Below are positions 13,424 through 56,744 of a stretch of 56,744 bases of DNA, one piece after another (within the stretch, counting starts at the first letter, position 1; the number at the start of each line of letters is the position of its first letter). The stretch is from assembly GCA_035546175.1 (NCBI GenBank), contig DASZWW010000467.1, positions 1 through 56,744 of the forward strand, given 5' to 3'. A model generated the notes under the pieces. It made no database searches. It was given only the letters and a program-made list of their open reading frames with translations, and was not told the origin of the DNA. The position numbers and the translations under genes are program-made. The DNA is from Polyangia bacterium. Its GTDB lineage: Bacteria > Myxococcota_A > Polyangia > Fen-1088.

Positions 13424-13556
13424 CGGGTCCCCTCCTAAAGGGCCGCCCATACTACCAAAATCCCAGCGAAAATACGGCGGGATCCGCCCGAGGGCGCGTC
13501 AGGATCGTGGCCGTCTCGAGGCCGCGGGCCGCCCGGGAGGGCCCGGCGTCAGGGCG

Positions 13557-19814: not shown

Positions 19815-19819
19815 AACGC

Positions 19820-19833
19820 CCCTTTCGAAAGGG
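19820..19833. repeat. Perfect 14-nt palindrome CCCTTTCGAAAGGG
   Basis: Self-complementary 14-mer in the 69-nt gap between the kinase stop (19884) and the CDP-alcohol transferase start. On the minus strand it is followed by GCGTTTTGG. Confidence 0.6.
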
Positions 19834-19883
19834 CTAGGCTCCTTACTTTCCGGCGGGAAGCATGCCAGTGGATCGCGCCGGCC

Positions 19884-28887: not shown

Positions 28888-30285
28888 TCAGGCGCCCACG
28901 ACGATGAGGAACCGCCAGCTCTTGGCCTCGATGCCGTAGCCGGCGTCGACGCCCACGAGCGGCACGGCGACCGAGCGCAGGAAGAAGCGCAGACCGCCAC
29001 CGACGTCGTTGTGGATGCTCTGGTTCCACGAGAAGCCGTAGCTGTTGTCCTGCGGGAAGTTGCGCATGTCGGGCGTCTGGCGCGTCCCCATCACGTAGTT
29101 CGTGTTGTTCGGGTCGAAGGGGTTCTCGCGGAACCAGATCGCCTGCACGTCGTAGAAGCCCAGCGCGCGGAAGTCGAGCGACCCCACCGAGAACAGCGGG
29201 AAGTGATACTCGACCTTGCCGCCGAGCTGCGTGTCGCCGCGGAACTGCTGGGTGAGGTAGCCGCGCAGGTTGGGGCCGCCGGCCGTGTTCTCGGCCCAGA
29301 GCGGCAGGTTGTGCCCCGCCGTCGCGCCGAGGAAGTAGATGAGGTTGTGCGACCTGAAGAACTTGATGCCGTGCTCCCAGCTCGCGCCGGCGCGCCAGTA
29401 GGTGAAGTCGCTCTTGAAGTCGGGGCTGGCGTAGTCGAGCGCCGCGCTCAACGCCGTGCCGTGCATGACGGCGAACTCCCGCGCGCGGAAGTCGAACGTC
29501 AGCGACGCGCGGCCGATGCCGACGACGCCGCCCTTCGTCGAGTCGACGGGCTGGCGCACGCCCGTCGCGGGATCGAACGTGCCGTCGTAGTTGAAGTTCT
29601 CGATGTGCCAGGCGACCTGGGTCTTCACGCGCCGGAGCCAGGCGACGCCGAGCGCGCCCTCGAAGCCGTACGAGAACAGGTGCGTCTCGCGCAGCTCGAG
29701 CGGGTCGGAGAGCACGACGTCGTAGTTCGCGTTCGAGTAGTTCTGGTACTCGGGGATGACCTGCTTCTGGATGAGCCCCTGGACCTGCCAGTAGATCCAG
29801 CTGCCGAAGAAGGCGGGATCGCGGTAAGCGAGCGTCGCGCCCGAGTCGATCGTCGCGAGCCGGCCGCCGATGGCGAGCTGCTTGCCGCGGCCGAAGAGGT
29901 TTCCGTGGACGAACAGCAGGCCGATCGACTTGTTGTTCGCCGACCACGACGCGGTCGGCACGGGCGCCCAGGGGAACTTGTCCTTGACGGAGATGTTCAC
30001 CCGGACGCCCTCGCCGTGCGGCTCCCACCACACGTTCACGTCGGCGAAGAGCCCCGTCGTGTTGAGGCGCTCGCGGACCTTGTCGAGCGTGTCGGCCTCG
30101 AGGATGTCGCCGTGCGCGATCCCCGCGATGGAGCGCACCGTCGACTCCTCGGTGCGCTGGTTGTCCAGCACGCGGACGTCGACGATCGTCTCGCCGATGG
30201 CGAGGGCGCGCGAAGGCACGCCGACGAGGCACACGACCACCACCGCGAGCGCGAGGACGACCCGTCGGGACCGGCCCCGCGCCAT
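28888..30285 (-). CDS. Omp85-family outer-membrane protein with a single POTRA domain
   Basis: MARGRSRRVVLALAVVVVCLVGVPSRALA signal peptide (ATG 30285; the track start 30345 is less likely). One POTRA-like unit (IVDVRVLDNQRTEESTVRSIAGIAHGDILEADTLDKVRERLNTTGLFADVNV), then a beta-barrel with an aromatic-rich alternating pattern and a bacterial surface antigen (D15)-like C-terminus. Confidence 0.8.
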   Translation of the reverse strand: MARGRSRRVVLALAVVVVCLVGVPSRALAIGETIVDVRVLDNQRTEESTVRSIAGIAHGDILEADTLDKVRERLNTTGLFADVNVWWEPHGEGVRVNISVKDKFPWAPVPTASWSANNKSIGLLFVHGNLFGRGKQLAIGGRLATIDSGATLAYRDPAFFGSWIYWQVQGLIQKQVIPEYQNYSNANYDVVLSDPLELRETHLFSYGFEGALGVAWLRRVKTQVAWHIENFNYDGTFDPATGVRQPVDSTKGGVVGIGRASLTFDFRAREFAVMHGTALSAALDYASPDFKSDFTYWRAGASWEHGIKFFRSHNLIYFLGATAGHNLPLWAENTAGGPNLRGYLTQQFRGDTQLGGKVEYHFPLFSVGSLDFRALGFYDVQAIWFRENPFDPNNTNYVMGTRQTPDMRNFPQDNSYGFSWNQSIHNDVGGGLRFFLRSVAVPLVGVDAGYGIEAKSWRFLIVVGA

Positions 30286-30442
30286 CAAGCAAAGCTCGGG
30301 CATGGGACAAGGATATCGGCGCGGCGGGCATTCGTAAATGTCCACTCTGCGCCCGGGTGTTCGGGGGTGGGACCAACGTCACTCCGTGTCCGTCGAGATA
30401 CCGCCCCCATCCCGCGGAAACCCTGGTAACGTTGGCCGGCCC

Positions 30443-32995
30443 ATGGCGTCTTCCCACTCGCCCAACGGCGGCCGATATCACAATTGGGTCGCGGGGCGGC
30501 CGGTGCTCGTCCTCGTGCTGTCGCTCCTCGTGGGCGCCGCCGGCGCGTTTCTGGCCTCGAAGCTGAAGCTCAAGACGGCGTTCGCCGAGCTCTTGCCGAG
30601 CGACGACCCCGGCGTCGTCGCCCTCACCCGCACGCAGGCCCGCATGGGCGACCTGTCGCTGCTGCTCATCGGCGTGCGCTCGCCCGACCACGACGCGAAC
30701 CTGCGCTACGCCGAGGAGCTGACCAAGCGCCTGCGCGAGATGCCGCCGACCGTCGTGCAGCTCGCGACGTACAACGTGCGCGATCTCAAGCAGTTCTTCG
30801 AGAAGAACAAGTGGCTCTACGCCTCCGAGGACGACCTCGAGTCGATCCGCGACCGCCTGCGCACCGAGATCTCCAAGCGCAAGAACCCGCTCTTCGTCTC
30901 CCTGGGCGACGAGGAGCCGCTCGAGGACATGCAGAAGCGCATGGAGCACAAGGACGGGCTCGACGAGCGCTTCCCCGGCGGCGTCTTCGAGAGCAACCAC
31001 GGCGAGTACGTCTGGATCGCGGCCCTGCCGCCGGGCGGGCTCTTCGCGGACAACGCCGGCGAGGGGCTCTTCAAGGCGGCGCACAGGCTCCTCGAGGAGG
31101 TGCCGCCCGAGAGCTTCCACCCGAAGATGCGGGCCGAGGTCTCCGGGCCCATCGCGACGGCCATCGCCAGCCGCGAGGCCGTCGAGCGCGACATCCTGTG
31201 GGTCACGGTGACGTGCCTCGTCGTCGTGGCCCTCTCGATCGGGCTCTACTTCCGGCGCCTGCGCGCGATCCCCCTCACCGGCGTGCCGGCCATGATCGGC
31301 GCCATGGTGGCCTTCGGCGTGGCCGAGCTGGCCTTCGGTTACCTGAACTCGTCGACGGCGTTCCTCGGCTCGATCATCCTCGGCAACGGCATCAACTACG
31401 CGATCGTCGTCATGTCGCGCTACGAGGAGGAGCGCGCCCGCGGCGCCAGCACCGACGAGGCCCTGCGCGCCGCGCTGGCCGGCACGTGGCGCGGGACGCT
31501 CGTGGCGTCGATCTGCGCGTCGGCGGCGTACGCGTCGCTCATGGTGACGAGCTTCCGCGGCTTCTATCAGTTCGGCGTCATGGGCGCCGTCGGGGCGCTG
31601 TTCTGCTGGGCGGCGACCTACACGGCGCTGCCGGCGATGCTCGTGCTGCTCGATCGCCGCGAGAAGGGCCGCGACGTGCGGGGCCGCGCGCCGCTCGACC
31701 TCGGGCCGCTCGCGCGCCTGCTGGGCCGCCATGGCGCCACGGTGTCGGCCGTCATCGCGGTCCTCGCCGTGACGTCGCTCTACGGCCTCACGCACTTCCT
31801 CAAGGACCCCTTCGAGTACGACTTCCGCAAGCTCAACGCGAAGCTCAACACGACCGAGGAGGCGAAGGAGTTCGGCAAGAGCGTCGACAAGCTCTTCGGC
31901 CGCTGGCCGTCGCCCACGATCGTGCTCGCGGACTCGGTCGACGAGGTCGAGCCCATCAAGAAGACGATCCGCGCGCAGGACTTCGCGCAGGCCCAGCGGC
32001 AGCCCGACCCCAAGGCGCCCGGCGCCGAGGTCATCGGGCAGATCGTGACAATCTACGACCTCCTGCCCGGACCGCCCGACGTGCAGGAGCGGAAGCTCGC
32101 GCTCATCAAGGACATCGACAAGCTCAAGCACGACAAGGCGCTCTCGCTGCTCGACGACGACGAGAAGAAGAAGCTCGACAAGATCGATCCGCCGAGCGAC
32201 CTGCGCGAGCTCAAGCCCCTCGACCTGCCGCCCATCGCGCGCCGGCCGTTCACCGAGGTCGACGGCACCGTCGGGCGCGTGGTGCTCGTCTACCCGCCGG
32301 AGAAGGGGCTGTCGGTGTGGAGCGGGCGCGACCTCCTGCGCATCGCCTCGGTGCTCCAGTTCCTGCACCTGCCCGAAGGGAAGGTCGTCGAGACCTCGGG
32401 CTCGGCCGTCGTGTTCGGGGCGATGATCCGCTCCGTGCTCCACGACGGGCCCATCGCCACGACCGTCTCGCTGCTCGCCGTGCTCGTGCTCGTGCTCGCG
32501 ATGATCCGCCCCGTGCGCGCGGCGCTCGTGGCGGTCGCCATCCTGCTGCTCGGCGTGACGCTCATGGTGGGCAGCGCGGGCTGGGCGCGCGTCCACGTGA
32601 CGTTCCTGAACTTCATCGCCTTGCCCATCACCTTCGGCATCGGCGCCGAGTACGTGCTCAACGTCGTGACCCGCTACCGCGAGGAGCGGGACATCCTGCG
32701 CTCCGTCGTGTCGACGGGCGCCGCGGTCGCGCTGTGCTCCTGGACGACGATCGTCGGCTACGGTTCGCTGCTGGCGGCCCGCAACCAGGCGCTGCAGGGC
32801 TTCGGCGCCATGGCCATCCTCGGCGAGATCTCGTGCCTCTCGGCGGCCATCGTCGCCCTGCCCGCCTTCGTCATCTGGAGCCAGGGCCGGCGCGCCACGA
32901 ACGGGGCCTCGGGGCGGGCCCAGCCGGCGCCCGGCGCGCTCGGCGAGCCGCCCGTCGAGCCGAGCTCGCTCAGCGCCCCAAGCGCCAGCGAATGA
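30443..32995 (+). CDS. RND-superfamily exporter (COG1033 / MMPL / HpnN-like)
   Basis: ATG at 30443 (MASSHSPNGGRYHNWVAGRPVLVLVLSLLVGAAG). About 850 aa with two TM bundles separated by large soluble domains and the typical ELLPSDDP N-terminal loop. Divergent from the Omp85 gene. Confidence 0.85.
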   Translation: MASSHSPNGGRYHNWVAGRPVLVLVLSLLVGAAGAFLASKLKLKTAFAELLPSDDPGVVALTRTQARMGDLSLLLIGVRSPDHDANLRYAEELTKRLREMPPTVVQLATYNVRDLKQFFEKNKWLYASEDDLESIRDRLRTEISKRKNPLFVSLGDEEPLEDMQKRMEHKDGLDERFPGGVFESNHGEYVWIAALPPGGLFADNAGEGLFKAAHRLLEEVPPESFHPKMRAEVSGPIATAIASREAVERDILWVTVTCLVVVALSIGLYFRRLRAIPLTGVPAMIGAMVAFGVAELAFGYLNSSTAFLGSIILGNGINYAIVVMSRYEEERARGASTDEALRAALAGTWRGTLVASICASAAYASLMVTSFRGFYQFGVMGAVGALFCWAATYTALPAMLVLLDRREKGRDVRGRAPLDLGPLARLLGRHGATVSAVIAVLAVTSLYGLTHFLKDPFEYDFRKLNAKLNTTEEAKEFGKSVDKLFGRWPSPTIVLADSVDEVEPIKKTIRAQDFAQAQRQPDPKAPGAEVIGQIVTIYDLLPGPPDVQERKLALIKDIDKLKHDKALSLLDDDEKKKLDKIDPPSDLRELKPLDLPPIARRPFTEVDGTVGRVVLVYPPEKGLSVWSGRDLLRIASVLQFLHLPEGKVVETSGSAVVFGAMIRSVLHDGPIATTVSLLAVLVLVLAMIRPVRAALVAVAILLLGVTLMVGSAGWARVHVTFLNFIALPITFGIGAEYVLNVVTRYREERDILRSVVSTGAAVALCSWTTIVGYGSLLAARNQALQGFGAMAILGEISCLSAAIVALPAFVIWSQGRRATNGASGRAQPAPGALGEPPVEPSSLSAPSASE

Positions 32996-34797: not shown

Positions 34798-35796
34798 TCA
34801 AGGGCACGTGTGGGGCTGCGCGGGCAGCGCGCAGGGGGTCATGGCGTCGGCGCAGCGGAGATCGCCGAGGCACTCGATGCCGAGCTCCTGGCACGGTCCG
34901 CCCGCGCCGGACAGGGCGACGCAGACGCCGCTCGCGCCGTCACAGGCGGCGAAGGCGACGCACGACTGGTCGGACACGCGGCAGGGCGCGCCCACGGGCA
35001 CGCGCGGCAGGCAGGTCTTCGACGTGGGGTCGCAGTACGTCGTGGGGTCGTCGCAGGGCGTGGCGAGGGAGAGGTCGCAGGCAGCGCCGGGCGCGGCGAG
35101 GGCCGCGCACGTCCCGTCGGGCAACGTCGACGAGGGGACGCACGCGAGGCCGCCGCCGCAGGCGCCGTCGCCGCAGGGCGCGCCGGCCGTCGCGGGCAGG
35201 GCCGTGCAGAGGGCCGACGCGGGGTCCTGCGCCTCGAAGGCGCAATACGCCGAGGGCTCGCAGAGCGGGGAGAGCGTCAGGAGAATGCCGGCGGCGTCGC
35301 CGCACGAGGCGCCCACGGGCTTGGGCTCGGGCGGGAGCGCGCACGAGCCGCCGCAGGCCACGCCGCCTCCGCGCGACGGATCGCACAGCGCGGGCGGGGC
35401 GCACTGCTCGTCGGCGCCGCAGGCGCCCCCGACGGGGACGCGGCCCCGGAAGGCGGCCTGGAAGCGCTGCCTCGAGCCCGTGCTGGCCGCGAGGCTGGTC
35501 GAGGCGGTGAGCCCGCAAGGCGTGGCCGTCACCCCGTCGACGAGGGCCTGGCCGCCCTGAGGGCTATAGGCGACCTTCCCCGAGGCGAGGTCCGCCGCGA
35601 GCTGCGCCGACACGGGTGAGCTTGTCGCGCCGAGGCAGGTGTCGAGGTCGGGCATGCGGCCGCAGCGCACCTCGCGCGCGCAGATCGCCTGGTGCCACTC
35701 GGCCTCGATCTGCGCCTGCGGGATCGCCGGGCCGCTCCCGCAGCCCGAGCACAGCAGAACGAACACGACGCCGAGACGACCCGCCTCCGAATGCAT
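34798..35796 (-). CDS. Cys-rich secreted lipoprotein
   Basis: ATG at 35796 (GAGGGGG 8 nt upstream; track GTG 35811). MHSEAGRLGVVFVLLCSGC lipobox, then about 40 Cys in repeated C-x-G-C / P-C-x-D contexts, typical of myxobacterial disulfide-rich repeat proteins. Confidence 0.75.
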   Translation of the reverse strand: MHSEAGRLGVVFVLLCSGCGSGPAIPQAQIEAEWHQAICAREVRCGRMPDLDTCLGATSSPVSAQLAADLASGKVAYSPQGGQALVDGVTATPCGLTASTSLAASTGSRQRFQAAFRGRVPVGGACGADEQCAPPALCDPSRGGGVACGGSCALPPEPKPVGASCGDAAGILLTLSPLCEPSAYCAFEAQDPASALCTALPATAGAPCGDGACGGGLACVPSSTLPDGTCAALAAPGAACDLSLATPCDDPTTYCDPTSKTCLPRVPVGAPCRVSDQSCVAFAACDGASGVCVALSGAGGPCQELGIECLGDLRCADAMTPCALPAQPHTCP

Positions 35797-35856
35797 GTCT
35801 TGCCCCCTCACCCGACCCTCTCCCGCGGACGGCAGAGGGAGACTCTGACTCGGCCT

Positions 35857-35896
35857 GGCCCAAACAGGGCGTTCAGCCCTGGCCCAAACAGGGCGT

Positions 35897-35904
<8 letters not shown>
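35857..35904 (-). repeat. Exact tandem duplication (2 x 24 nt), each copy forming a CAGGGC-UGAAC-GCCCUG hairpin followed by UUUGGG; spans the stop codon of the giant TPR gene
   Basis: 35857-35880 and 35881-35904 are identical (ggcccaaacagggcgttcagccct). The TGA at 35899..35897 lies in the loop of the gene-proximal hairpin. Possibly a weak double intrinsic terminator. Confidence 0.8.
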
Positions 35905-46396
<10,492 letters not shown>

Positions 46397-46516
46397 TGAG
46401 GTCCTCCAGATGTCGGATCGAATCCGGCGCTGACGCGCGACGAGACGAGTTACACGAACAACGAGCCGAACCGCTTCGCACCTAACCCTGCGAAACGGTA
46501 GAAAATCGGGAAGAAA

Positions 46517-46541
46517 TTTATATCACGCGCCATCGAGTCAA
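46517..46541 (-). promoter_or_regulatory. Candidate sigma-70-like promoter for the giant TPR gene (TTGACT ... TATAAA)
   Basis: On the minus strand, TTGACTcgatggcgcgtgaTATAAAttt lies in the lowest-GC part of the 374-nt intergenic. The spacer is only 13 nt for TATAAA (15 nt for TAAATT), so this is weak. Pattern only. Confidence 0.2.
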
Positions 46542-46711
46542 AAAACAGGAAAAGCGCGTCGATTCCACACACTTCCGCCGCCTACACACGCCCACAACGG
46601 GTCCCGCGCGGCCTTCCGCCCCGCGCGATCGCCCGCGCTAATTCTTAGAACCCCGCGCCCCGCCGCAAGGGCCCACGCACGCGCTCGTTCCGCGCGCCAG
46701 CGAGCCAGTCC

Positions 46712-46750
46712 CCAAAAACAAAAAAGGCGCGGCTCTCGCCGCGCCTTTTC
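46712..46750 (-). terminator. Rho-independent terminator downstream of the TPR-lipoprotein gene
   Basis: Minus strand GGCGCGGC-gaga-GCCGCGCC is a perfect 8-bp GC stem with a 4-nt loop. It is followed by TTTTTTGTTTTT and starts 25 nt after the TAG at 46771. Confidence 0.85.
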
Positions 46751-46770: not shown

Positions 46771-47679
46771 CTACGGCCCGGACAGGGCGTACAGCTTGTC
46801 GTTGGCCGCCTTCACGTAGTTGCCGTCGGCCGACTTGCCGCCATTGGTGACGAACTTCTGGAGGTACTCGCGGGCCTTGTCCTTCTGGTCGTTCCCGTGG
46901 GCCTCGTCGTACCAGTCGGAGTAGGCCATGCCGGCGTTGTAGAGGGCGTCATAGAGCTCGGGGTCGAGGTCGATCGCCTTCTTGAACTCCGTCGTGGCCT
47001 GCTCGTACTGCTTGAGGTTCTTGAGCGCCAGCCCGTAGCCGTTGTGGCACTCGCCGTCGTCGTCCTTGGCCGTCACGCAGCCCTGGAAGACCTGGGCGGC
47101 CTCCTTGTTGAAGTCGTAGTCGAGGTACAGGTACCCGAGCGCGACGTACGACTTCGAGAAGCGCGGGTTCGCCTCGATGGCGCTGCGGAGCGCGTCGTCC
47201 GCCTCCTTCGGGTGGTCGAGCACCTTGCGCACGAGGCCGAGGCGCCACCAGGCCTTGAAGAGCTTCGGGTCGGCCGCCGTGGCCGCCGCGAACGCCTTCT
47301 CGGCCTGGTCCAGCTTCTTCTGCTCGAAGTACGCCTCGCCGAGGTCGTACTGGAAGTTGGCGTTGTTCGGCGAGTGCTGCACGGCCTGCTCGAACGACTC
47401 GATGGCCTTGTCCCACTTGCGCTGCTTCTGGAAGACCTTGCCGAGGTTGTAGTACGCGATGTCGTACGACGGATCGGTCTGGATCGATTGCTTGAGATCC
47501 TTCTCGGCCGAGTCGTAGAGGTTGTTCTTGAACTCGTCGGCTCCCTTGTTGGCGAGCTCGATGGCCTTGATGCGCTCCTGGCTGCAGACGAAGCCCTCGC
47601 AGGCCGGGAGGATGAAGGCGATCGACAGGACGACCGCCTGAGGATGAACGAGACGACGAGCCAACTTTGCCAGCTTCAT
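46771..47679 (-). CDS. TPR-repeat lipoprotein (302 aa)
   Basis: ATG at 47679 within track ORF 46771..49128. MKLAKLARRLVHPQAVVLSIAFILPAC (signal peptide plus Cys), then about 6 TPR units (AYYNLGKVFQKQRKWDKAIESFEQAVQHSPNN...). Lies 2 nt after the stop of the FHA/TonB-C gene. Confidence 0.85.
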   Translation of the reverse strand: MKLAKLARRLVHPQAVVLSIAFILPACEGFVCSQERIKAIELANKGADEFKNNLYDSAEKDLKQSIQTDPSYDIAYYNLGKVFQKQRKWDKAIESFEQAVQHSPNNANFQYDLGEAYFEQKKLDQAEKAFAAATAADPKLFKAWWRLGLVRKVLDHPKEADDALRSAIEANPRFSKSYVALGYLYLDYDFNKEAAQVFQGCVTAKDDDGECHNGYGLALKNLKQYEQATTEFKKAIDLDPELYDALYNAGMAYSDWYDEAHGNDQKDKAREYLQKFVTNGGKSADGNYVKAANDKLYALSGP

Positions 47680-47681
47680 GT

Positions 47682-49871
47682 TCACTCTCCACCGCCCGCG
47701 GGCGTGAGGACGAACGGGTACGAGACGATGACGATACCGCCGCCGAGGGGCTTCGGGAACTCCCACCGGCGAACGGCCTGGACGGTGCAGTTCTCGACGC
47801 GCGCGTTGCCCATCGTCGAGTTCTGGAGCACCGAGGCGATGACCTGGCCCGACGCCGCGATGGTGAACTGCACCATGATGCGGCCGCCGAGGTCCGGCTT
47901 CTTCGTGAGCTCCTGCTCGTAGCAGTACTTCACCTCGTTGATGTGGCGCCGGATGATGCGGCGGATGATCTCCTTGTCGAGCGAGCCGCGGACGGCCGCC
48001 GTGCCGGGGATGACGTCGGGCGCCTTCGCGCGACGGCCGCCGAGGCCGCCGGCGCCGCGGCCGTAGCCGGAGCCGTTGCCGCCGCCGCCGCCCTTGCCGA
48101 TCGTGCCCAGGTTGCCGAGGCCGATCGTGCCCTCGCCCGTGCCGCCGCCGCCCGAGCCCGTGCCGACGAGGCCGAGGCCGCCGACGCCGTAGGCCTCGCC
48201 GATCTGGTTGCCGATGAGGCCGCCGAGGACGTCCTCGGCGTCGGTGCCGAGCGCGGAGTCGCGGCCGAAGATGCTGGCGATGTGCGAACCCTCGTTCATC
48301 TTGAGGACGCCGAGGATGCCGGCGTTCTTGGCCTGCTCCTCCGCGAGCTTCTTGGCGAGGTGCGGATCCGGGTTGTCCTTCGGACCCTTGAGGCCGTACA
48401 GACCCTCCTTGTTCTTGGAGGTCTTCTTGCCCATCTTGCCTTCTTCGCCCTTGTGACGCTTGCCCTTGCCGCCCTGCTCCTCGTTCTTCTTCGACTTGAG
48501 CCACTCGGGGATGTCCTCTTCCTTCTCCTCCGGCGGCTTGATGAGGAACTTCACGAAGCGGTTGTCCGAGTTGAAGAGATCGAGCGAGAGGGACTTCGGA
48601 TCCGGCGGGACCGAGAAGATCATGAGGAGGAACAGCAGGAGCGCGACGCTCGAGCCGACCGTGTAGATCTGCTCGTCCCAGCGCCAGGTGAGGAACGGCA
48701 CCTCGAGGGCGCGCGGGCGGTTCGTCGCCGAGACGAGGAACGACGACTCGCCGCAGTCGAGCTTGGCGCGCGCGCCCTGCGGGAGCGAGAAGCTCGAGCC
48801 GCGCTGGGCGATGAACTGCTGCAACGGATAGAGCTGGTTGTCGACGTAGACCTCGCCGGTCATGCGCGGGGTGACGTTGACGACGTAATCGGCGCCCGTG
48901 GCCGCGACGAGCGGGTGCGAGGGGGACGGCACGTACTCGGGCGACACGGGCGCGTCGACGTCGGCGTCCGAGCCGATGATGAAGTTCGGGCTCGACTTGC
49001 CGCGCCGCTTGAGGCCCATGTACACGAGCGCGATGCCGGCGGCGATGCCGCCGAACACGAGGACGTCCGGCCCCTCGGACCGAGACTTCCACGGGAAGCT
49101 CTTGGCCTCCTGGCCGCCCGCCGTCCACTGCTCGAAGCGGGCCTTCTCGGCGCCGACGTCGACCGCCGTCGCGACGAACGTGATGAGGCCGACGAGCGCG
49201 AGCCCGAGGCCGGCGTACAACATGGTCGTGCCCTGGCGGTGCTTGCTCTGACCCTCGGGGTTGAAGAGGTGGCGCGTGCCGGTGACGACGCCGCGGTAGA
49301 CCGACTGCACCTCCATGGCGCGCGAGCCGTCCATGACCTCGACCTCGGCGCTGGCGCCGCCGCCACCTCCGAAGCCGCCACCGCCGCCCGGCGGGGGCGC
49401 GTAGCCGCCGCCCTGGCCAGGGGCCGCGAACTGCGCCTGGGGCGGCGACGGGACGTAGCCCGGAGGCGGCGCGAACCCACCCGGAGGCGGCGCGATGCCG
49501 AGGCTCGTCTTCTGACCGACGCGAGGCGCGGCCGCCGGCGGCGGCGTCAGCCCGGCCTCGGCCGCCAGGAACGTGACGTGCACGCGGCTGTCGCCGAACA
49601 TGATCTCGTCACCCGACTGGAGGCGCGTCTTGCTGATGCGCTCCCCGTTGACGAGCGTGCCGCGCGTCGAGCCGAGGTCTATGATGTGGATCTCGTCGGG
49701 ACCCGTGACCTCGATGACGGCGTGCATGCGCGACACCGTCTCGTCGTCGATCCGCAGGTGCGACGAGGCCAGCTTGCCGACCTTGATCACGTCCTGGGCG
49801 AGGGTCTCTTCGCGAACGAGCGCGTCCCCCTTGTAGATCTCGAACTTGATGGGGACCTTCACGTCGGCCAT
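47682..49871 (-). CDS. FHA domain / 3-TM / Gly-rich / TonB-C-terminal-domain protein, GltG(PglI)-like
   Basis: 729 aa, GGAGA SD. N-terminal FHA (VGKLASSHLRIDDETVSRMHAVIE...IIDLGSTRGTLVNGERI), a Pro/Gly-rich linker, TM segments at about residues 216-237, 269-287 and 403-421, a Gly-rich tract, and a C-terminal TonB-like domain (IRRHINEVKYCYEQEL...GRIMVQFTIAASGQV...AVRRWEFPKP). Confidence 0.88.
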   Translation of the reverse strand: MADVKVPIKFEIYKGDALVREETLAQDVIKVGKLASSHLRIDDETVSRMHAVIEVTGPDEIHIIDLGSTRGTLVNGERISKTRLQSGDEIMFGDSRVHVTFLAAEAGLTPPPAAAPRVGQKTSLGIAPPPGGFAPPPGYVPSPPQAQFAAPGQGGGYAPPPGGGGGFGGGGGASAEVEVMDGSRAMEVQSVYRGVVTGTRHLFNPEGQSKHRQGTTMLYAGLGLALVGLITFVATAVDVGAEKARFEQWTAGGQEAKSFPWKSRSEGPDVLVFGGIAAGIALVYMGLKRRGKSSPNFIIGSDADVDAPVSPEYVPSPSHPLVAATGADYVVNVTPRMTGEVYVDNQLYPLQQFIAQRGSSFSLPQGARAKLDCGESSFLVSATNRPRALEVPFLTWRWDEQIYTVGSSVALLLFLLMIFSVPPDPKSLSLDLFNSDNRFVKFLIKPPEEKEEDIPEWLKSKKNEEQGGKGKRHKGEEGKMGKKTSKNKEGLYGLKGPKDNPDPHLAKKLAEEQAKNAGILGVLKMNEGSHIASIFGRDSALGTDAEDVLGGLIGNQIGEAYGVGGLGLVGTGSGGGGTGEGTIGLGNLGTIGKGGGGGNGSGYGRGAGGLGGRRAKAPDVIPGTAAVRGSLDKEIIRRIIRRHINEVKYCYEQELTKKPDLGGRIMVQFTIAASGQVIASVLQNSTMGNARVENCTVQAVRRWEFPKPLGGGIVIVSYPFVLTPAGGGE

Positions 49872-49940
49872 GGCTGTCTCCTACGGGCTTCGGTTGGGAA
49901 GCCGCCTGAAGGCCGTCGTGACTTTGAACCGGAACGCGGT

Positions 49941-49983
49941 GCGGTGCACCGCGGGAGGGTCCGGGAACCCTCTCAGGGTTCCC
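49941..49983 (-). other. Two RNA-structure elements in the 114-nt intergenic: 12-nt palindrome GCGGTGCACCGC and a 9-bp perfect hairpin GGGAACCCT-gag-AGGGTTCCC
   Basis: The hairpin at 49963-49983 starts 2 nt after the TAG of the small secreted protein gene and has no following U-tract. The palindrome is at 49941-49952. Confidence 0.6.
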
Positions 49984-49985
49984 GT

Positions 49986-50267
49986 CTAGACGTCCTCAAG
50001 CGACTTCAACATCTCGGGAATGAAGTCCTTGCGGATTTCGATGAGGCTGGAGTGCTCCGTCTTCTTCAAGGAGTTGACCAGCTCTCCGTCGGGACGCTGC
50101 AGGTCGCCTTCGACCATGTCGTCCTCGAAGTCATAGACGGTCTTCGCCTTGTACTGCACGCCGTCGTCTGCCCCCCCGCCGGCGGCCGGCTTGGGGTCAG
50201 CGGCGAAGGCGCGGCTCGAGGTTGCCCCGATGAGTCCGAGAAGAGCCATTCCAATGACGAGCTTCAT
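49986..50267 (-). CDS. Small secreted acidic protein (93 aa), at the GltF position
   Basis: ATG at 50267 preceded by AAGGAG (the track start 50312 is less likely). MKLVIGMALLGLIGATSSRAFA signal peptide. Mature part contains TVYDFEDDMVEGDLQRPDGELV. Confidence 0.7.
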   Translation of the reverse strand: MKLVIGMALLGLIGATSSRAFAADPKPAAGGGADDGVQYKAKTVYDFEDDMVEGDLQRPDGELVNSLKKTEHSSLIEIRKDFIPEMLKSLEDV

Positions 50268-50352
50268 GTCGCTTCTCCTTACGGGGTAGCCCTGTCGCGT
50301 GTGTTCAGACAACCGACAGGCTCCCCGGTTCCGCTAAATCTTACTCCCACTG

Positions 50353-50412
50353 AAAAAAAGTGGCGCCGCCCGATCCCGAGGTCGTGGGACACGGAGGACC
50401 TGACGCGGCGCC
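50353..50412 (-). terminator. Terminator/attenuator-like structure inside the operon
   Basis: On the minus strand, GGCGCCGC (50412-50405) pairs with GCGGCGCC (50369-62) around a 35-nt loop with an internal AGGTC/GACCT stem. It is followed after 2 nt by T7 (50359-50353) and starts 8 nt after the GltE-like stop. Confidence 0.4.
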
Positions 50413-50419
50413 CCCGACG

Positions 50420-52147
50420 CTACTTCTTCTTTCCCTTCTTCTTGCCCTCGGCCGGCGCGGCCGGAGCGGCGTCGCCGGTCCCAGGAGCGGGCGGCGCGCT
50501 GGCGGCCGGCGGCTCGGTGCCGGGCTTGGCGTCGGCGGGCTTGGCGTCCTTGTCGCCCTTGTCCGCCTTGGCCTTGTCGGCGGCGGCCTTCTCCTCCGCC
50601 TCCTGCTTCTTCATCTGCTCTTCCATCTGCTTCTGCTGCTCTTCGGCCTTCTTCTGCATCTCCTCGGCCTCGGCCTGCATCTTCGCGGCCTCGTCGAGGG
50701 CGACATAGATCTCGTCGATGTCCTTGATGCGCTTCTCGGCGTCCTTCTTGATCGCGCCGGGCGTCGAGCTGGAGGCGTGGGAGAGGAACTGGCGGTAGTA
50801 GTCCTGCGCCTTGTGGAGCGCGGGCTTCTGGCCGTCCTTGTAGTCCTGGTAGAGGAGGCCGAGGTTGTAGTAGCTCGACGGGTTCGACGAATCGAGCTTC
50901 TGGGCCGCGAGGTACTGCGTCTCGGCGTCGTCGATCTTCTTGTTCCCGCGCAGCGCGACGCCGAGGCCGATCGAGGCCTCGTAGTTCTTCGGCTGCATCT
51001 TGAGCGCCTCGCGGAAGTTCTCCTCCGCCGTCGTGTAGTCGCGGTTGTTGAGCGAGAGCGCCGCCAGGTTGAGCCGCGCCTCCGCCAGGTTCGGATCGAG
51101 CGCGACGGCCTCCTTGAACTGCTTGATGGCCGGGCTGATGTTGGCCTTCTTGAGCTCGACGAGGCCGAGCGTGTTGCGCACGACGGCGAGCTGCTTCTTC
51201 ATCTCGGGCGTCACGCCCGTGCCGGCCTCGCGGACGTCCACGGCCTTGACGCCTGCGTCGTCGTCGTCCTTGTCGGCCTTGCCCTTGCCCTTGCCCTTCC
51301 CCTTCCCCTTGCCCTTGGCGTCGGCGGCGTCGTCGTTGGCGGCGCCGGCCTTCTCCTCCTCGAACTTGCCGGTCGCGATCTCGTCCGCCTTCTTGATGGC
51401 CTGGTTGCCGACGAGCTTGGCCATCTCGAGCATGTTCATGTCGTAGTAGATGAACGCCAGCGTCGAGAACGCCTGCAGGTTGTTGCTGTCGATCGCGAGC
51501 ACCGTGCGCAGGTTGCTGACGGCCGACTGCACGTACTGCTTCTTCTCGGCGCCGTCCGCGCGGTGGGCCTTGTCGCGCAGGATCTGCGCGAGGTTGTTGC
51601 GCGCCTCGACGGTGTGGAGCGGATCGACGTTGATCGCCTCGTTGAAGAGCGCCTCCGCCCGGCTCGTGTCGCCGTTCTTCCAGGCGATGTAGCCGAGGTT
51701 GGCGATCGCGGGGCCGTACTTCATGCCCTTCCAGACGCTGACGGCCGCGTCCTCGTCGCCGCACTCCTGCAGCACGGCGCCCTGGTTGAAGCGCGCCTCG
51801 AGCAGGTTCGGGTTCTCGTCGGCGGCGCTCTTGAAGTCGCTCGCGAGGCTGCGGCACTCAGAGCCCGAGAGCCCGTTCTTCCTCGAGGCCTGGTACTTCT
51901 GAACGGCCTTCTCGAAGTCGGCGCGGGCGTCGGCGCTGATCTGCCGCTTGGCCTCCTTCGGGATGATCTCCGCCGAGTTCGGCTTGGTCTCACCCGGGGT
52001 GAGGTCGTTCTCGCTGCCGGCGCTCTGCGAGGACGGCACCTGCGTCGAGCCGCAGGCGGCGAGCCCCGCCGCGAGCCCCCAGGTCAGGCCGAGGAGGCCG
52101 AGGCGCGTGGTGTTGAAGCTCAGGCTGCGGATGGCGTTGGTCTTCAT
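50420..52147 (-). CDS. TPR-repeat lipoprotein, GltE(AglT)-like
   Basis: 575 aa. MKTNAIRSLSFNTTRLGLLGLTWGLAAGLAAC lipobox, multiple TPR units, an internal (KG)6 tract, and a C-terminal Lys/Glu/Ala-rich tail ending in KKKGKKK. Confidence 0.85.
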   Translation of the reverse strand: MKTNAIRSLSFNTTRLGLLGLTWGLAAGLAACGSTQVPSSQSAGSENDLTPGETKPNSAEIIPKEAKRQISADARADFEKAVQKYQASRKNGLSGSECRSLASDFKSAADENPNLLEARFNQGAVLQECGDEDAAVSVWKGMKYGPAIANLGYIAWKNGDTSRAEALFNEAINVDPLHTVEARNNLAQILRDKAHRADGAEKKQYVQSAVSNLRTVLAIDSNNLQAFSTLAFIYYDMNMLEMAKLVGNQAIKKADEIATGKFEEEKAGAANDDAADAKGKGKGKGKGKGKADKDDDDAGVKAVDVREAGTGVTPEMKKQLAVVRNTLGLVELKKANISPAIKQFKEAVALDPNLAEARLNLAALSLNNRDYTTAEENFREALKMQPKNYEASIGLGVALRGNKKIDDAETQYLAAQKLDSSNPSSYYNLGLLYQDYKDGQKPALHKAQDYYRQFLSHASSSTPGAIKKDAEKRIKDIDEIYVALDEAAKMQAEAEEMQKKAEEQQKQMEEQMKKQEAEEKAAADKAKADKGDKDAKPADAKPGTEPPAASAPPAPGTGDAAPAAPAEGKKKGKKK

Positions 52148-52150
52148 GAT

Positions 52151-55100
52151 CTACTTCCCCGCCTTGGTCTGAACGGCCTCGGAGAGCTCCCCGACGACCG
52201 GCGTCGGCGACATGTTCGTCGAGACGTAGCCGGCCTCCGGCTTGACCTCCGACGCCAGCGGGTACTCGGAGGGCTTCATCTGGTTGAGCTCGCGCTCGCA
52301 GAGCCGCGACCACTCGTTGTACCAGGACTGCTCGGTGGCGGCCTTGAGGCACTTCTCGAAGCCGTCGACGGCCTTCGCCTCGATCGGCTCGGCCTTGTCC
52401 TCGAGCGCGTCGCAGAAGATCTCGCGCGGGCGGTTGCCCCACTCGTCCTGCTCCTTGAGGTCCTTCGGGATCTCGGCCGTGTAGAGCTGGCCCGCGAAGT
52501 CGCTGTAGATCTGGCCGACGCGGGCCGCGGACGCGATCGTCCACTGCGCCTGCTTCATGCCGAAGACGTCGAGGTACTGCGTGCGCGCCTTGTCGAGCGC
52601 CTTGGCCTTCTCGTCGAGGTAGGCGTTGAACTTCTTGCCCGACTCCTCGGCCTTCTTCTTCTTCGCGGCCGCCTTCTTGGGCGTGTCGTACGAGGAGGGC
52701 TGCTGGAAGTCGAGGCCCTCCGGGAACTTGATGCGCAGGAACGCCTCGTAGGAGACCTCGGCGATGTAGAACGCCGAGCCGGCGACGGCGTACGCCGCCG
52801 AGCCGGCGCGCGCCTCGACGTCCTTGCCCGTGATCTTCGAGGCGGCCGCGCCCTTGTTCCAGATCTTGAGGACGGCCGCGAAGTGCTCCTGCGCCTTCGC
52901 AGCCTGGGCCTTCTGGCGGTCGAAGAGGGTGATCTTCGACTTCGTGGGCGGGCCGCACTGGGTGCGCGACTTCTCGTGGACCTTCTTGCCCTTCTTGAGC
53001 TTGCGGTTGAGGTCGGCGAGGACCTTCTGGCGGCCCGTCGCGGTGACGCGCTTGATCTCGAGGCAAGCGCCGTCCTCGGACGACTTGGGGCACGAGGCCT
53101 TCCAGGCCATCTCGCCGAGGCGGAAGTGCGCGAGGATCTGGCGATCAGGCCCGCCCTGGGCGCCCCAGAGCTTGAGGTAGCTCTCGAGGTGCTTGGCGAG
53201 CTCGTCGTAGCGCTTGTCCTTCTCGTAGACGTCGGCCATCTGGAAGTACACGCCGGCGGCGTCCTGCGGCTTCCGCTTGCCGTAGAACTCGACGTACGAC
53301 TTCATGTCGGAGAGCGCCTTGTCGCTCTCGCCGAGCCCGATGCGGAAGGTCGTCGCGTTGCCGAGCGCGTCGTTGGCCTTCTTCTCGCCCGGGAACTTCG
53401 TGGCGAAGTCCTCGTAGTTCTCGGCCGCCTTCGAGTAATACGCGAGCTGGTGGTAACCGGCCGCGACCCGGAAGAGCGCCTTCTGCGCGAGCGGATCCTT
53501 CGGGTGGTCCTTGATGAGCTCGAGGCGCGCCTTGAGCGCCTGGCCGACGAGGTGCGCGTTCTGGAAGCACTGGCCGGCGTTCCAGAGCCGCTCGGCGTGC
53601 TTCGGGTGCTCCGGCAGCGACTCCGCCGAGGCGAGCATCGAGCGCCCGCACTCCTTGAAGTTGTGCAGCTTCTCGAACTCGCGGCCCTCGAGGTCGTACG
53701 AGTCGCTCTTGAGCGAGATCATGTCCTTGCCGAACTGCGGGTCCTGCATGAGGCACTGCTTGTCGAGGAACTTGTCGACGTTCGCGAGGACGTCCTTCGT
53801 CTTGCCCTGCGCGTTCAGCGAGTCGAGCAGCAGGTTCGCCGAGTACAGCGACAGGCCGTCCGGATCCGGACAGTGCTTGTCGACGATCTCCTGGAAGAGG
53901 GGCGCCGCCTCCGCGAAGTGGTTGTACTCGTAGAAGATGCGCGCGCGACGGTACATGATCGTGACCGTCTCCTTCGCGTCGGGGACGTACTTGAGGTACG
54001 TGTCGAAGGCGTTGATCATCTTCTGCTGGTACTCGGGGATCTTCATCGGCTCGAGCTTGGTGATCTCCTTGCCGCCCTCCTTCTTCTCCTTGCGGTCGTT
54101 CTCCACCGCCTCGCGCTGCTCGTGGTCGTCGACGTTGAGGGCGTTCTTCCAGGCGAGGACGGCCGCGTAGGCGGCGTCCTTGACGTACTTGCCCTTGGGG
54201 TTCATCTCGACGACCTTCGTGTACTGCTCGGCCGCGTCCTTCCAGTTCTCGAGCGTCCACAGGAGCTCGCCGTAGTAGAAGGACATGTCGTACGCGTCCT
54301 TGTCCGACGGGAAGTGGTCGAGGAAGACCTTGTAGACGTACTTGTCGAGCGCGTAGGTGTCGGAGTTCTTCGTGCGCTGCGCCTCCTTGTGCCAGATGAG
54401 CGCGAGCTCCTTGGCCGTGTCGTGGAAGGCGTTGCGGCACTCCTCCATCTGGTCCTTCTTCACGCCCTGCTTCATCTCGCCGACCTTGTCGTAGACGGCG
54501 CCGAGGCGCTCGATCTCCTGGACCTGGTCGCGCTTGCTGCCCGACGACAGCGTGTTGCGCACGATCTTGTTCTGCCACTCGCAGATGCGCGGCGAGTCCA
54601 TGTTCATGGAGATCACCTTGCGGTACACGCGCGTCGAGTCGGGGAACTTGCCCTGCTCCCAGTAGAGCTCGGCGAGGGCCTCCATCATCTTCGGCGCGAA
54701 GTCGCCGCCCGTGCGCTGGAAGAACTCCCAGGCCTTGTCGGGGCCGCCGACGTGCGCGTAGGCCTTGACGATGTCCTTCTTGGCCTCCTTCTGGAGCGCC
54801 TGCTTCTGGGCGGCGTTGACGTTGACCTTGCCCTCCTGGGTCATGCGCACGACGCCCACGAACGTCTCGAGGGCCGTCTTGTAGTCGCCCATGTTCACGT
54901 AGCACCACCCCTTCTTGTAGACGGCGTAGGGGTAGACGCTGGACTTGGGGAACTGCTCGACCTTCTCGTAGAACTTGAGGGCCGCGTCCATGTCGGCCTT
55001 GTCGAAGTAGAACTCGGCGAACGACAGGTACGCGTCGGGGATGTACTTCGAGTTCGGGTAGTCCTTGATGAGGCGGAGGAAGAACTCGCGGGCCTGGTCC

Positions 55101-55723
55101 TCCTTCTTCACCGACGTGAGGAGGTAGGCGAGCTTGAAGAGCACCTCGTCCATGCGCTCGTACTTCTTGAACTTGGTCGCCTGGATGTACGACTTGACGG
55201 CCTCGAGCAGCCACTTCTGCTGCAGGTCCTCGTAGCCCTTCTGCTGCTTCTGCAGCGTCGCCTTCTGCGCGGGGGGCGCGTCGAAGATCTTCTGATCCAG
55301 GCCGCGCGCGCTCGAGAAGTAGAAGCGCTGCTTGTCGGCGTAGAGCTCGGCGAGCCGGAAGTGAAAGTCGGGCTTCTGAGGATCGTCGTCCTGCGTGACC
55401 GCGATGAGCCGGCGCATCTTGATGATCTGCTGGTCGACGATCTTCTGGATCTCCGACTGCTTCTGGAAGATGAACTGGTCGACGGTGATCGTCGGGCCGG
55501 TCTCCTTCTTCTGGGGCGGCGGCGCCTGCGGCTTCGTCAGGTTCGTCTGCTGCGTCCCCTGGATCTCCTTCTCTTGCTTCTGATACCGAGCCTTGCCGCT
55601 GTTGGCGGGGGTCGTCTGCTCGCCGGCCGCGCGCGCGAGAGAGGGGGCCGCCGTCAGCGCGGCCAGGGTCGCGAGCGCGGCCGCGCGCGCGAGAGCTCTC
55701 AGGGACCGGATCTCACTCGTCAT
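52151..55723 (-). CDS. Large secreted TPR-repeat protein, GltD(AgmU)-like (about 1,190 aa)
   Basis: ATG at 55723 (GGAGAAG upstream). MTSEIRSLRALARAAALATLAALTAAPSLARA signal peptide, then TPR/helical repeats throughout. The upstream 86 codons of track ORF 52151..55981 are Arg-rich junk. Confidence 0.85.
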   Translation of the reverse strand: MTSEIRSLRALARAAALATLAALTAAPSLARAAGEQTTPANSGKARYQKQEKEIQGTQQTNLTKPQAPPPQKKETGPTITVDQFIFQKQSEIQKIVDQQIIKMRRLIAVTQDDDPQKPDFHFRLAELYADKQRFYFSSARGLDQKIFDAPPAQKATLQKQQKGYEDLQQKWLLEAVKSYIQATKFKKYERMDEVLFKLAYLLTSVKKEDQAREFFLRLIKDYPNSKYIPDAYLSFAEFYFDKADMDAALKFYEKVEQFPKSSVYPYAVYKKGWCYVNMGDYKTALETFVGVVRMTQEGKVNVNAAQKQALQKEAKKDIVKAYAHVGGPDKAWEFFQRTGGDFAPKMMEALAELYWEQGKFPDSTRVYRKVISMNMDSPRICEWQNKIVRNTLSSGSKRDQVQEIERLGAVYDKVGEMKQGVKKDQMEECRNAFHDTAKELALIWHKEAQRTKNSDTYALDKYVYKVFLDHFPSDKDAYDMSFYYGELLWTLENWKDAAEQYTKVVEMNPKGKYVKDAAYAAVLAWKNALNVDDHEQREAVENDRKEKKEGGKEITKLEPMKIPEYQQKMINAFDTYLKYVPDAKETVTIMYRRARIFYEYNHFAEAAPLFQEIVDKHCPDPDGLSLYSANLLLDSLNAQGKTKDVLANVDKFLDKQCLMQDPQFGKDMISLKSDSYDLEGREFEKLHNFKECGRSMLASAESLPEHPKHAERLWNAGQCFQNAHLVGQALKARLELIKDHPKDPLAQKALFRVAAGYHQLAYYSKAAENYEDFATKFPGEKKANDALGNATTFRIGLGESDKALSDMKSYVEFYGKRKPQDAAGVYFQMADVYEKDKRYDELAKHLESYLKLWGAQGGPDRQILAHFRLGEMAWKASCPKSSEDGACLEIKRVTATGRQKVLADLNRKLKKGKKVHEKSRTQCGPPTKSKITLFDRQKAQAAKAQEHFAAVLKIWNKGAAASKITGKDVEARAGSAAYAVAGSAFYIAEVSYEAFLRIKFPEGLDFQQPSSYDTPKKAAAKKKKAEESGKKFNAYLDEKAKALDKARTQYLDVFGMKQAQWTIASAARVGQIYSDFAGQLYTAEIPKDLKEQDEWGNRPREIFCDALEDKAEPIEAKAVDGFEKCLKAATEQSWYNEWSRLCERELNQMKPSEYPLASEVKPEAGYVSTNMSPTPVVGELSEAVQTKAGK

Positions 55724-55821
55724 AGTTGGCTTCTCCACGGAATGAATTTCTCCACGGTGAATCTGACGTCGTCCTACGTGACGCTGGACTGGGGGACTTT
55801 GATGGGGGCTTGCGGTGGACG

Positions 55822-56744
55822 CTACGGGGACGGAGCCGGCGCGGCCTCGCCGCCCGGAGCGGGCGCGGCGGCCTCGCCCGTCGACGGGGCGCCCTCGGGC
55901 GCGTTGTGCTGGCACTTGTTGCCGATGCGAACCCTGTAATAGCCGAGCTCGTCGCGCCAGTACTCGCCGGTGAACGGCCACATCTGGTGCTCGTCGTCCA
56001 CGCGGATCTCCTCGGCGCGCTTGGCGTTCGGGCCCTGGACGAGCTGCTGCTCCTGGATGACCTCCTGCTCGAGGGCGCCGCGCTGGCCCTGCAGGATCTC
56101 GTACTCGATCTTGATGACGCGCTTGATGAGCTGCGCCAGCTCGTCGGTGAGGCGGATGATGCGGCGGCGCGCGAGGTCACCGGCCTCGTTGACGGCGAGC
56201 GAGCGCTGCAGCGTCAGGTCCGCGAAGACCGTCTGCGCGATGTTCGTCGACTTCCACGCGGGCTCGGCCTTGTCGTGCTGCTTGAGCTCGCGGTCGAGCT
56301 CCTCGACGTACTGGAAGCGCTTGACGAGCGAGAGGTCGCCGAGGACGCCGCGCGCGGCGCGCTCGACCTGCTCCGGCAGGCCCGAGGTCCCCTTGCGGAT
56401 CTTCACGGCCATGTCGTAGAGGGCCGCGTTGTCCGTCTGGGACATGACGAGCTTCTTCAGCTCCTGGAAGACCTGCGGGTAGATCGCGTTGAACTCGTCG
56501 ATGGCCTCCTCGGCGCGGTCGTAGAGGCAGTTGTAGAAATAGATCGTCGCCTTGACCGAGAGGCCCTCGGCCACCGACTCCGGCTTGATCGTGTTCTCGA
56601 AGTACGGCGCCTGGATCGTGTGGATGTTGCCGAGCGCCTTCGAGTAGCCCTTCTGCTTGAGCATGAAGTTCGCCCACGACGACTCGAAGAGGCTGTTCGC
56701 CCAGTCGTACGACTCGGGCGACACGCGGTCGAAGTACTTCGCGG
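55822..56744 (-). CDS. TPR/helical-repeat protein with coiled-coil C-terminus, 5'-truncated by the window edge (possible GltC/NfsC-like)
   Basis: The frame stays open to 56744 (AKYFDRVSPESYDWANSLFESSWANFMLKQKGYSKALGN...), so the track GTG at 56724 is not the true start. C-terminus WPFTGEYWRDELGYYRVRIGNKC plus a Pro/Ala-rich tail. The identity as GltC-like rests on position only. Confidence 0.8.
   Translation of the reverse strand, partial: AKYFDRVSPESYDWANSLFESSWANFMLKQKGYSKALGNIHTIQAPYFENTIKPESVAEGLSVKATIYFYNCLYDRAEEAIDEFNAIYPQVFQELKKLVMSQTDNAALYDMAVKIRKGTSGLPEQVERAARGVLGDLSLVKRFQYVEELDRELKQHDKAEPAWKSTNIAQTVFADLTLQRSLAVNEAGDLARRRIIRLTDELAQLIKRVIKIEYEILQGQRGALEQEVIQEQQLVQGPNAKRAEEIRVDDEHQMWPFTGEYWRDELGYYRVRIGNKCQHNAPEGAPSTGEAAAPAPGGEAAPAPSP

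Follow-up and report, generated by a model that had tools for sequence, protein, structure and literature searches.

A 56,744-nt stretch of contig DASZWW010000467.1 (assembly GCA_035546175.1; in its full length, the window), from an uncultured soil member of the Polyangia (Myxococcota), probably specifies three modules of an Agl-Glt-type gliding transducer, namely that of the periplasm, that of the inner membrane and the cytoplasmic scaffold. The genes stand in the order usual for Polyangia, gltC-D-E-F-G-X, followed by a terminator and gltI, where X denotes a lipoprotein of tetratricopeptide repeats (TPRs) that has no name in the literature searched. The locus reveals no new kind of system; it is a further instance of a known one, and a published table already gives this gene order for Sorangium cellulosum (Luciano et al., 2011). 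Two modestly new points are offered as small leads, namely X as a conserved, cluster-specific unnamed family, and a variant of gltG whose product has three membrane helices.

The window has a G+C content of about 70%, and mechanical lists of its open reading frames (ORFs) are rich in spurious frames. Analysis of third-position GC (GC3) resolved a single clear reading frame for each gene, and between position 35897 and the window end all of these frames are on the minus strand; this analysis, together with domain searches and signal peptide analysis, showed the sizes, coordinates and domain calls given for all cluster genes in the original prediction to be correct. The features are as follows.

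55822-56742, minus strand: gltC-like gene, partial (C-terminal 306 codons, the 5' end lying beyond the window), from its match to NCBIfam GltC
52151-55723, minus strand: gltD-like gene for a 1190-amino acid (aa) secreted TPR protein, from coding frame, signal peptide, TPRs and position
50420-52147, minus strand: gltE-like gene for a 575-aa TPR lipoprotein, from the lipobox LAAC and NCBIfam GltE
49986-50267, minus strand: gltF (cglF)-like gene for a 93-aa secreted acidic protein, from NCBIfam CglF and the signal peptide
47682-49871, minus strand: gltG-like gene, 729 aa, FHA/transmembrane/TonB-C-like, from Pfam and NCBIfam
46771-47679, minus strand: X, a 302-aa TPR lipoprotein, from the ILPAC lipobox and about seven TPRs
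46721-46750, minus strand: intrinsic terminator-like hairpin, from a 13-bp stem and T-run
46397-46720, minus strand: intergenic region upstream of gltI, from reading of the sequence
35897-46396, minus strand: gltI (agmK)-like gene for a 3499-aa cytoplasmic TPR giant, from TPRs, position and linkage

The intergenic gaps measure 98 nt between C and D, 3 nt between D and E, 152 nt between E and F, 114 nt between F and G, 2 nt between G and X, and 374 nt between X and I. No exact matches to the window's GltD, GltE or GltG are on record, and a relative, designated L001 (a 1-Mb Joint Genome Institute contig with a GltG that is 92% identical), was used instead.

Glt models are the best NCBIfam matches for four of the seven products (GltC, GltE, GltG, and CglF, which is GltF; PMC4488436), and the remaining three are consistent with Glt components in their size, domain type and place in the order, in agreement with the original prediction of a Glt/Nfs-family trans-envelope cluster. 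The partial upstream TPR/coiled-coil gene, which had been put forward as possibly GltC-like, does match NF033756 (GltC; E=1.7e-50) over profile positions 346-620 of 622, the last 275 of the model, scoring 172 bits against a cut-off of 450 for what is an incomplete gene; the full-length ortholog in L001, at 561 aa, starts with a Sec signal peptide and matches GltC at E=2.9e-87. GltE matches NF033758 (E=4.8e-39; 134.5 bits, cut-off 225) and GltF matches NF033764 (CglF; E=6.2e-25; 87.1 bits, cut-off 90), the latter with a signal peptide and a net charge of -6. GltE is about 100 aa longer than its M. xanthus namesake because of a low-complexity (KG)n insert, KGKGKGKGKGK, encoded by a tandem repeat at 51277-51317 (6-bp unit, 6.8 copies), and a long K/E/A-rich tail that ends KKKGKKK. 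As all four scores are under the curated equivalog cut-offs, the GltC, GltE, GltF and GltG products are clear family members rather than close orthologs of the Myxococcus proteins.

GltG begins with an N-terminal FHA domain, followed by hydrophobic helices at 214-242 and 267-288, a second FHA-like region, the canonical transmembrane helix at 400-425, a Gly-rich linker, and a TonB-C-like AgmX/PglI domain. Pfam recognizes FHA (E=1.3e-18) and TonB_C, and NCBIfam recognizes GltG (E=1.4e-127; 426.9 bits, cut-off 650) and NF033768, the AgmX/PglI C-terminal domain (E=3.3e-32), so that the FHA, membrane helix and TonB-C-like domain of the architecture set out by Luciano et al. (2011) are all present. 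Whereas M. xanthus GltG is described with one membrane helix, the window GltG has three, and because this number is odd its C-terminus would remain periplasmic. Three helices were counted in 24 of 58 full-length GltG homologs from related loci, and one helix in 25; the three-helix form thus makes up about 40% of the Polyangia homologs examined. The extra helical hairpin might add stator contacts.

GltD and GltI match TPR families, and Pfam and NCBIfam hold no specific model that either of them matches. GltD has a Sec type I signal peptide ending ...SLARA, with cleavage before AG. It contains no lipobox Cys; in the M. xanthus paper, by contrast, mature proteins are numbered from Cys1. Its 1190 aa compare with 1191 aa in M. 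xanthus GltD and are also compatible with the size of Sorangium sce2915; homology to MXAN_4870 is adopted because of the published Sorangium table. GltI is encoded by one uninterrupted frame with a GC3 of 0.97-0.98, lacks a signal peptide, has a net charge of -129 and shows TPR families throughout.

Conservation of the gene order was assessed with tblastn, using the seven window proteins against L001 and 79 best loci, almost all of Polyangia type, which were drawn from one genome per GTDB species by a scan with an alignment of eight GltG sequences. The loci span Plesiocystis pacifica, Enhygromyxa salina, a Nannocystaceae isolate, and metagenome-assembled genomes (MAGs) of Sandaracinaceae, Kofleriaceae and Polyangiales, with no Myxococcus or Sorangium DNA among them. 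The closest relatives are the numerous GltG homologs at 70-95% identity from soil metagenomes and Polyangia-labelled MAGs, and among 10 representative GltG homologs (~640-680 aa) that were looked up there was no named Myxococcus GltG or NfsG. The order C-D-E-F-G is kept in 51 of the 57 loci with sufficient upstream sequence, with GltD orthologs colinear at 27-89% identity. In 52 of 67 loci, gltG is followed within 3 kb by an X homolog (median offset ~200 nt), and 48 of these 52, including Plesiocystis, Enhygromyxa and Sandaracinaceae/Polyangiales, carry a gltI homolog after X, at 33-88% identity; gltI follows in none of the 15 X-negative loci. The order in L001 is identical to that of the window: C (561 aa), D (1182), E (573), F (91), G (729), X (294) and I (3498). 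In a neighbor-joining tree of the GltG C-terminal region, loci with both X and I fill most clades, while nine loci without either form one separate clade, and the few further loci that lack X or I are scattered.

A second class of loci, with C-D-E-F-G and neither X nor gltI downstream, comprises L030, L033, L035-L037, L039, L041, L045, L049 and L059, the GltG proteins of which mostly form a separate clade and have a single transmembrane helix. L045 alone has a TolQ-like gene, ~6 kb downstream, and L030 (Kofleriaceae) shares the trmD-rplS upstream context with the clade of the window.

Upstream of gltC, L001 encodes a divergent small Cys-rich lipoprotein, then YCII, UPF0102, rplS and trmD, and the cluster is therefore taken to begin with gltC. 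The 10 kb upstream in L083 and L098 contain rimM-trmD-rplS and unrelated genes. An arrangement with gltA/B just upstream of gltC, in the style of nfs or Anaeromyxobacter, was sought in these 10 kb and in the 2.4 kb visible in L001, and was not found. The divergent Cys-rich predicted lipoprotein (154-196 aa) recurs in several relatives (L001 1520-2005, L083 8320-8910, L030 1911-2375 and L059 1699-2187, all minus strand), loci without X and gltI included. It was considered as a candidate GltK and set aside; it has no NCBIfam match and is not recognizable as GltK.

The order C-D-E-F-G and the domain types are equally those of the nfs operon (nfsA-H, MXAN_3371-3378; C to G being MXAN_3373-3377), and NCBIfam scores under the Glt equivalog cut-offs would also sit well with an Nfs-like machine that moves spore-coat polymer in sporulation. 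However, the tabulated nfs operon places A and B ahead of C and an H homolog behind G, and includes neither X nor homologs of I, J and K, whereas the window has X and a gltI-like giant after G, the latter linked in 48 loci, and in relatives no beta-barrel (A/B) genes lie directly upstream of C. Further, the gltI-bearing Polyangia cluster is the one that Luciano et al. (2011) matched to the G1 genes of M. xanthus. An Nfs-like role is most improbable on this evidence, and we assign the cluster with good confidence to the motility (Glt) type, mainly because the linkage of gltI is conserved.

Several observations nevertheless weigh against a gliding transducer. With all four NCBIfam scores under their equivalog cut-offs, the products cannot be called strict orthologs of their Myxococcus namesakes; the assignment of GltD and GltI draws only on their TPRs, sizes and positions and on the Sorangium table, and the similarity of X to known proteins is of a generic TPR kind. 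None of gltA, gltB, gltH, gltJ, gltK or cglB is in the window, where a Cys-rich lipoprotein gene and then RNase Y, rather than gltJ, directly follow gltI; in the two relatives inspected, L083 and L098, gltA/B are not found within 10 kb upstream of gltC. A TolQR-like (stator) motor is likewise absent from the window, and a TolQ tblastn over the window and 160 related loci gave a single match, that in L045; the other 159 loci have no TolQ-like gene less than 10 kb away from the cluster. Lastly, the host lineage is uncultured, and its gliding is a prediction from its genes.

In this context, the cluster might be viewed as an expanded 'core complex' (GltC/D/E/G with a TolQR-like motor) that serves an envelope function other than motility, as in Geobacter and gammaproteobacteria. 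The Group B genes C, D, E and G are indeed present, with no known function, in bacteria that do not glide, and GltH, GltJ and GltK are essential for Myxococcus gliding; H and J are missing from the cluster in the window, and Table S3 of Luciano et al. (2011) gives no homolog of H, J or K for either Sorangium or Haliangium. On the other hand, core complexes hold their motor genes inside the cluster, which is not so here, and the window includes the Group A genes gltF and gltI, which are restricted to myxobacteria and Bdellovibrio. Cultured Polyangia that have the same cluster, such as Sorangium, Nannocystis and Plesiocystis, are, moreover, classical gliders. A core complex without a part in motility is therefore very unlikely in our estimation, though somewhat less so than an Nfs-like machine, and a gliding transducer remains the preferred reading.

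The stop codon of gltG and the start codon of X are 2 nt apart in the window (2-3 nt if L001 is counted), and the terminator stands only after X and not before it; X is taken to be co-transcribed with gltG and is probably coupled to it in translation. A Cys is found at the end of the signal peptide in all 53 orthologs with a readable N-terminus; the lipobox is canonical in 38 of 55, and most other readable ones (Polyangiales/Sandaracinaceae) have an atypical residue at -1 (AGNC, GGTC). After the Cys, an R...N.G motif (R36/N44/G46) is at least 94% conserved across 39 aligned mature sequences. The position after gltG is kept down to ~30% identity in three Polyangia orders, represented by Nannocystaceae, Sandaracinaceae and Polyangiales. 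The AlphaFold2 model (pLDDT, the predicted score in the local distance difference test, 89.7) has 15 helices, forming about seven TPR pairs and a capping helix. This predicted fold is a generic TPR superhelix, with 8-repeat consensus TPR proteins as its best structural matches, and a sequence search of the PDB likewise returned only generic hits, designed consensus TPRs and OGT.

The main rival to X as an adaptor of the gliding machine is that X stands outside it, either as a PilF/PilW/Tgl-type pilotin of the type IV pilus secretin, or as a TPR lipoprotein that is a neighbor by chance. The generic TPR fold is compatible with both; the best NCBIfam match of X is PilW (TIGR02521; E=3.2e-27), Tgl (NF033762) scores equally with GltE at ~54 bits, and database homologs are labelled 'Tfp pilus assembly protein PilF' or 'TPR protein'. 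Yet at 95.6 bits against a cut-off of 154 for PilW, and 54.5 against 225 for Tgl, X falls far short of a scored member of the pilotin family. The tight spacing to gltG in the window and L001, the terminator placed only past X, the conserved position, the co-occurrence with gltI (48/52 vs 0/15), and a conserved N-terminal motif peculiar to the family all speak for a place within the cluster, and we consider a pilotin or chance neighbor unlikely.

Two other identities for X were rejected. The first, 'agmV' (MXAN_4864/65, between gltH and gltI), is a 1151-aa ORF pair that resembles nothing known and is considered to consist of non-genes. The second, a recent duplicate of GltE, is unsupported, as X is 26-30% identical to window GltE (E=4e-10), no better than to PilW or Tgl. 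The apparent counterparts of X by position, sce2919 and Hoch_5625, receive no main-text mention in the literature searched.

Within the preferred reading, X would be a periplasmic-side, membrane-anchored TPR adaptor, additional and Polyangia-specific, that may cover part of the role of GltK/GltH in outer-membrane assembly or anchoring. It is a tentative, and on balance doubtful, proposal that X is an unnamed, Polyangia-wide, Cys-anchored subunit of about seven repeats, coupled to gltG and co-inherited with gltI, which replaces GltH and/or GltK and, together with the three-helix GltG, makes for a machine wired differently from the M. xanthus model.

The terminator that the original prediction had placed between the 302-aa gene and the giant was recovered as the top site of a terminator scan: a hairpin at 46750-46721 (minus strand; GAAAAGGCGCGGC-GAGA-GCCGCGCCTTTTTTGTTTTT) with a 13-bp stem, eight G-C pairs and a T-run. 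The 374-nt spacer between X and gltI also holds an AT-rich stretch (TTGACT...GATATAAAT) and, ahead of the GTG start codon, the Shine-Dalgarno sequence GGAGGA. A consensus promoter scan of the region upstream of gltI called no promoter; the AT-rich stretch is a possible promoter for gltI alone. At the other end of gltI, a perfect 24-bp direct repeat (35854-35905; 2.2 copies of CCTGGCCCAAACAGGGCGTTCAGC) overlaps the stop codon, and each unit holds a short palindrome (GCCCTGTTTGGGC, minus strand). The gene directly downstream, in the slot of Myxococcus gltJ (34798-35811, minus strand), encodes a 337-aa Cys-rich predicted lipoprotein with the lipobox LLCSGC, for which neither Pfam nor NCBIfam has a family. 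A gene for GltJ, which is of ZnR-GYF-TM-TonB-C-like architecture, could lie in another part of the genome.

The roles proposed for the remaining components are borrowed from M. xanthus genetics and from a 2025 AlphaFold model of the complex (PMC3169522, PMC11761067), and while gene content, domain architecture, best family matches and conserved synteny are observed here, the interactions, the motor, the motility function and the role of X are inferred. GltG would act as the inner-membrane hub, its cytoplasmic N-terminal FHA domain docking on repeated sites of the GltI scaffold, while its membrane helix and the adjacent FHA-like domain would contact the AglR pentamer of the AglRQS (TolQR-like) proton motor, presumably encoded elsewhere. 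On the periplasmic side, the linker and TonB-C-like domain of GltG may wrap around GltD, the putative secreted TPR pillar of the machine by analogy. The lipoprotein GltE, GltF and GltC would attach to GltD and link it to the outer-membrane platform, with GltF bridging GltG, GltD and GltC, and GltC reaching the platform of GltA/B. The window encodes all modelled components but the motor and the outer-membrane barrels, and both are encoded elsewhere in Sorangium too.

The remainder of the window is of a housekeeping nature (leuCD, cimA, tsaB, rseP, hflX, secA, an ECF sigma factor, an exopolysaccharide (EPS)-type cluster and an Omp85/RND pair), and Rfam and tRNA scans returned no matches. Genes at 18585-21382 and 27166-27888 (minus strand) encode a CDP-alcohol phosphatidyltransferase (IPCT/DIPPS-like), a CysQ/inositol-monophosphatase-like enzyme, a small kinase and an NTP-transferase; between them (21412-27150) lie two GT4 glycosyltransferases, a Wzx-like flippase and an AsnB-type amidotransferase, and together they may specify a pathway for an inositol-phosphate-containing lipid or polysaccharide. 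A divergent pair, comprising an Omp85/BamA-like outer-membrane protein (28888-30345, minus strand; 485 aa) and an HpnN/MMPL-type RND transporter (30338-32995, plus strand; 885 aa), suggests a lipid-export module. A 229-aa ORF without a family match (13549-14238, minus strand), directly downstream of the ECF sigma factor gene (14330-15016, minus strand), is probably the cognate anti-sigma factor.

The Agl-Glt system is the model for bacterial gliding by focal adhesions, and has been dissected only in Myxococcus xanthus. The present locus indicates that an abundant lineage of uncultured soil Polyangia bears the version of Sorangium type, in which gltC adjoins gltD-G, a conserved TPR lipoprotein is added, gltI is probably transcribed separately, and the cluster includes neither gltH nor gltJ. 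For annotation, the comparison is of practical use, since the labels that MAGs now give to such genes are 'TonB family protein', 'PilF' or 'TPR protein'. The family of X, in the position of sce2919 and Hoch_5625, and the three-helix GltG are the features of interest for gliding outside Myxococcus.

The organization differs from that of M. xanthus, as the original prediction stated in suggesting that it may be 'intermediate or alternative', but its novelty was overstated, given that it is the normal Polyangia order and was published for S. cellulosum So ce56. The M. xanthus clusters G1 (gltD-E-F-G-H-(agmV region)-I-J) and G2 (gltK-B-A-C) hold the same types of component in the same relative order, D-E-F-G...I, and share with the window the FHA/transmembrane/TonB-C-like G, the lipoprotein E, the small secreted F, and the giant cytoplasmic TPR protein I, which is ~630 aa shorter in the window. 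The three differences that had been singled out are real, and each has a published counterpart. The gene after gltG does encode an all-helical TPR lipoprotein and not the outer-membrane beta-barrel GltH that occupies this slot in M. xanthus; absence of GltH and GltK was already reported for Sorangium and Haliangium, and both were inferred to be late acquisitions within the Myxococcus lineage (Luciano et al., 2011), which explains the finding for GltH. No gltJ follows gltI, and Sorangium and Haliangium have no listed GltJ homolog either. Finally, gltC adjoins gltD, which is the ancestral order of the 'core complex', shared by nfs and by Anaeromyxobacter, Sorangium, Haliangium and Geobacter; Luciano et al. 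(2011) concluded that the linkage of C, D, E and G as a core is ancient, and the separation of gltC in M. xanthus is the derived state. Anaeromyxobacter, in which G1 and G2 genes are united in a single locus gltK-B-A-C-D-E-F-G-H...I-J, has C directly upstream of D in common with the window, but differs in that K, B and A precede C, H follows G, six other genes separate H from I, and I is succeeded by J.

The closest match is with So ce56, for which Table S3 of Luciano et al. (2011) lists sce2914 (C, 568 aa), sce2915 (D, 1289), sce2916 (E, 497), sce2917 (F, 90) and sce2918 (G, 681), skips sce2919, and lists sce2920 and sce2921 as homologs of MXAN_4863 (gltI). Order and sizes agree with the window, with one unlisted gene, sce2919, in the slot of X, and from position alone we take sce2919 to be the counterpart of X. 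The Sorangium gltI is annotated as two genes (1774 and 2081 aa) where the window has a single ORF, and gltA/B-like genes lie six genes upstream in Sorangium, in contrast to the 10 kb inspected in L083 and L098. The same table places two aglRQS sets ~70 genes away from the Sorangium cluster. In Haliangium ochraceum, the C-D-E genes are listed at other loci, whereas those of the window adjoin F-G; Hoch_5628 (F) and Hoch_5627 (G, 767 aa) are accompanied by Hoch_5625, a 296-aa TPR protein filed as a GltE homolog (Luciano et al., 2011). By its description rather than its sequence, as a ~300-aa TPR protein right after gltF-gltG, Hoch_5625 is likely the Haliangium counterpart of X.

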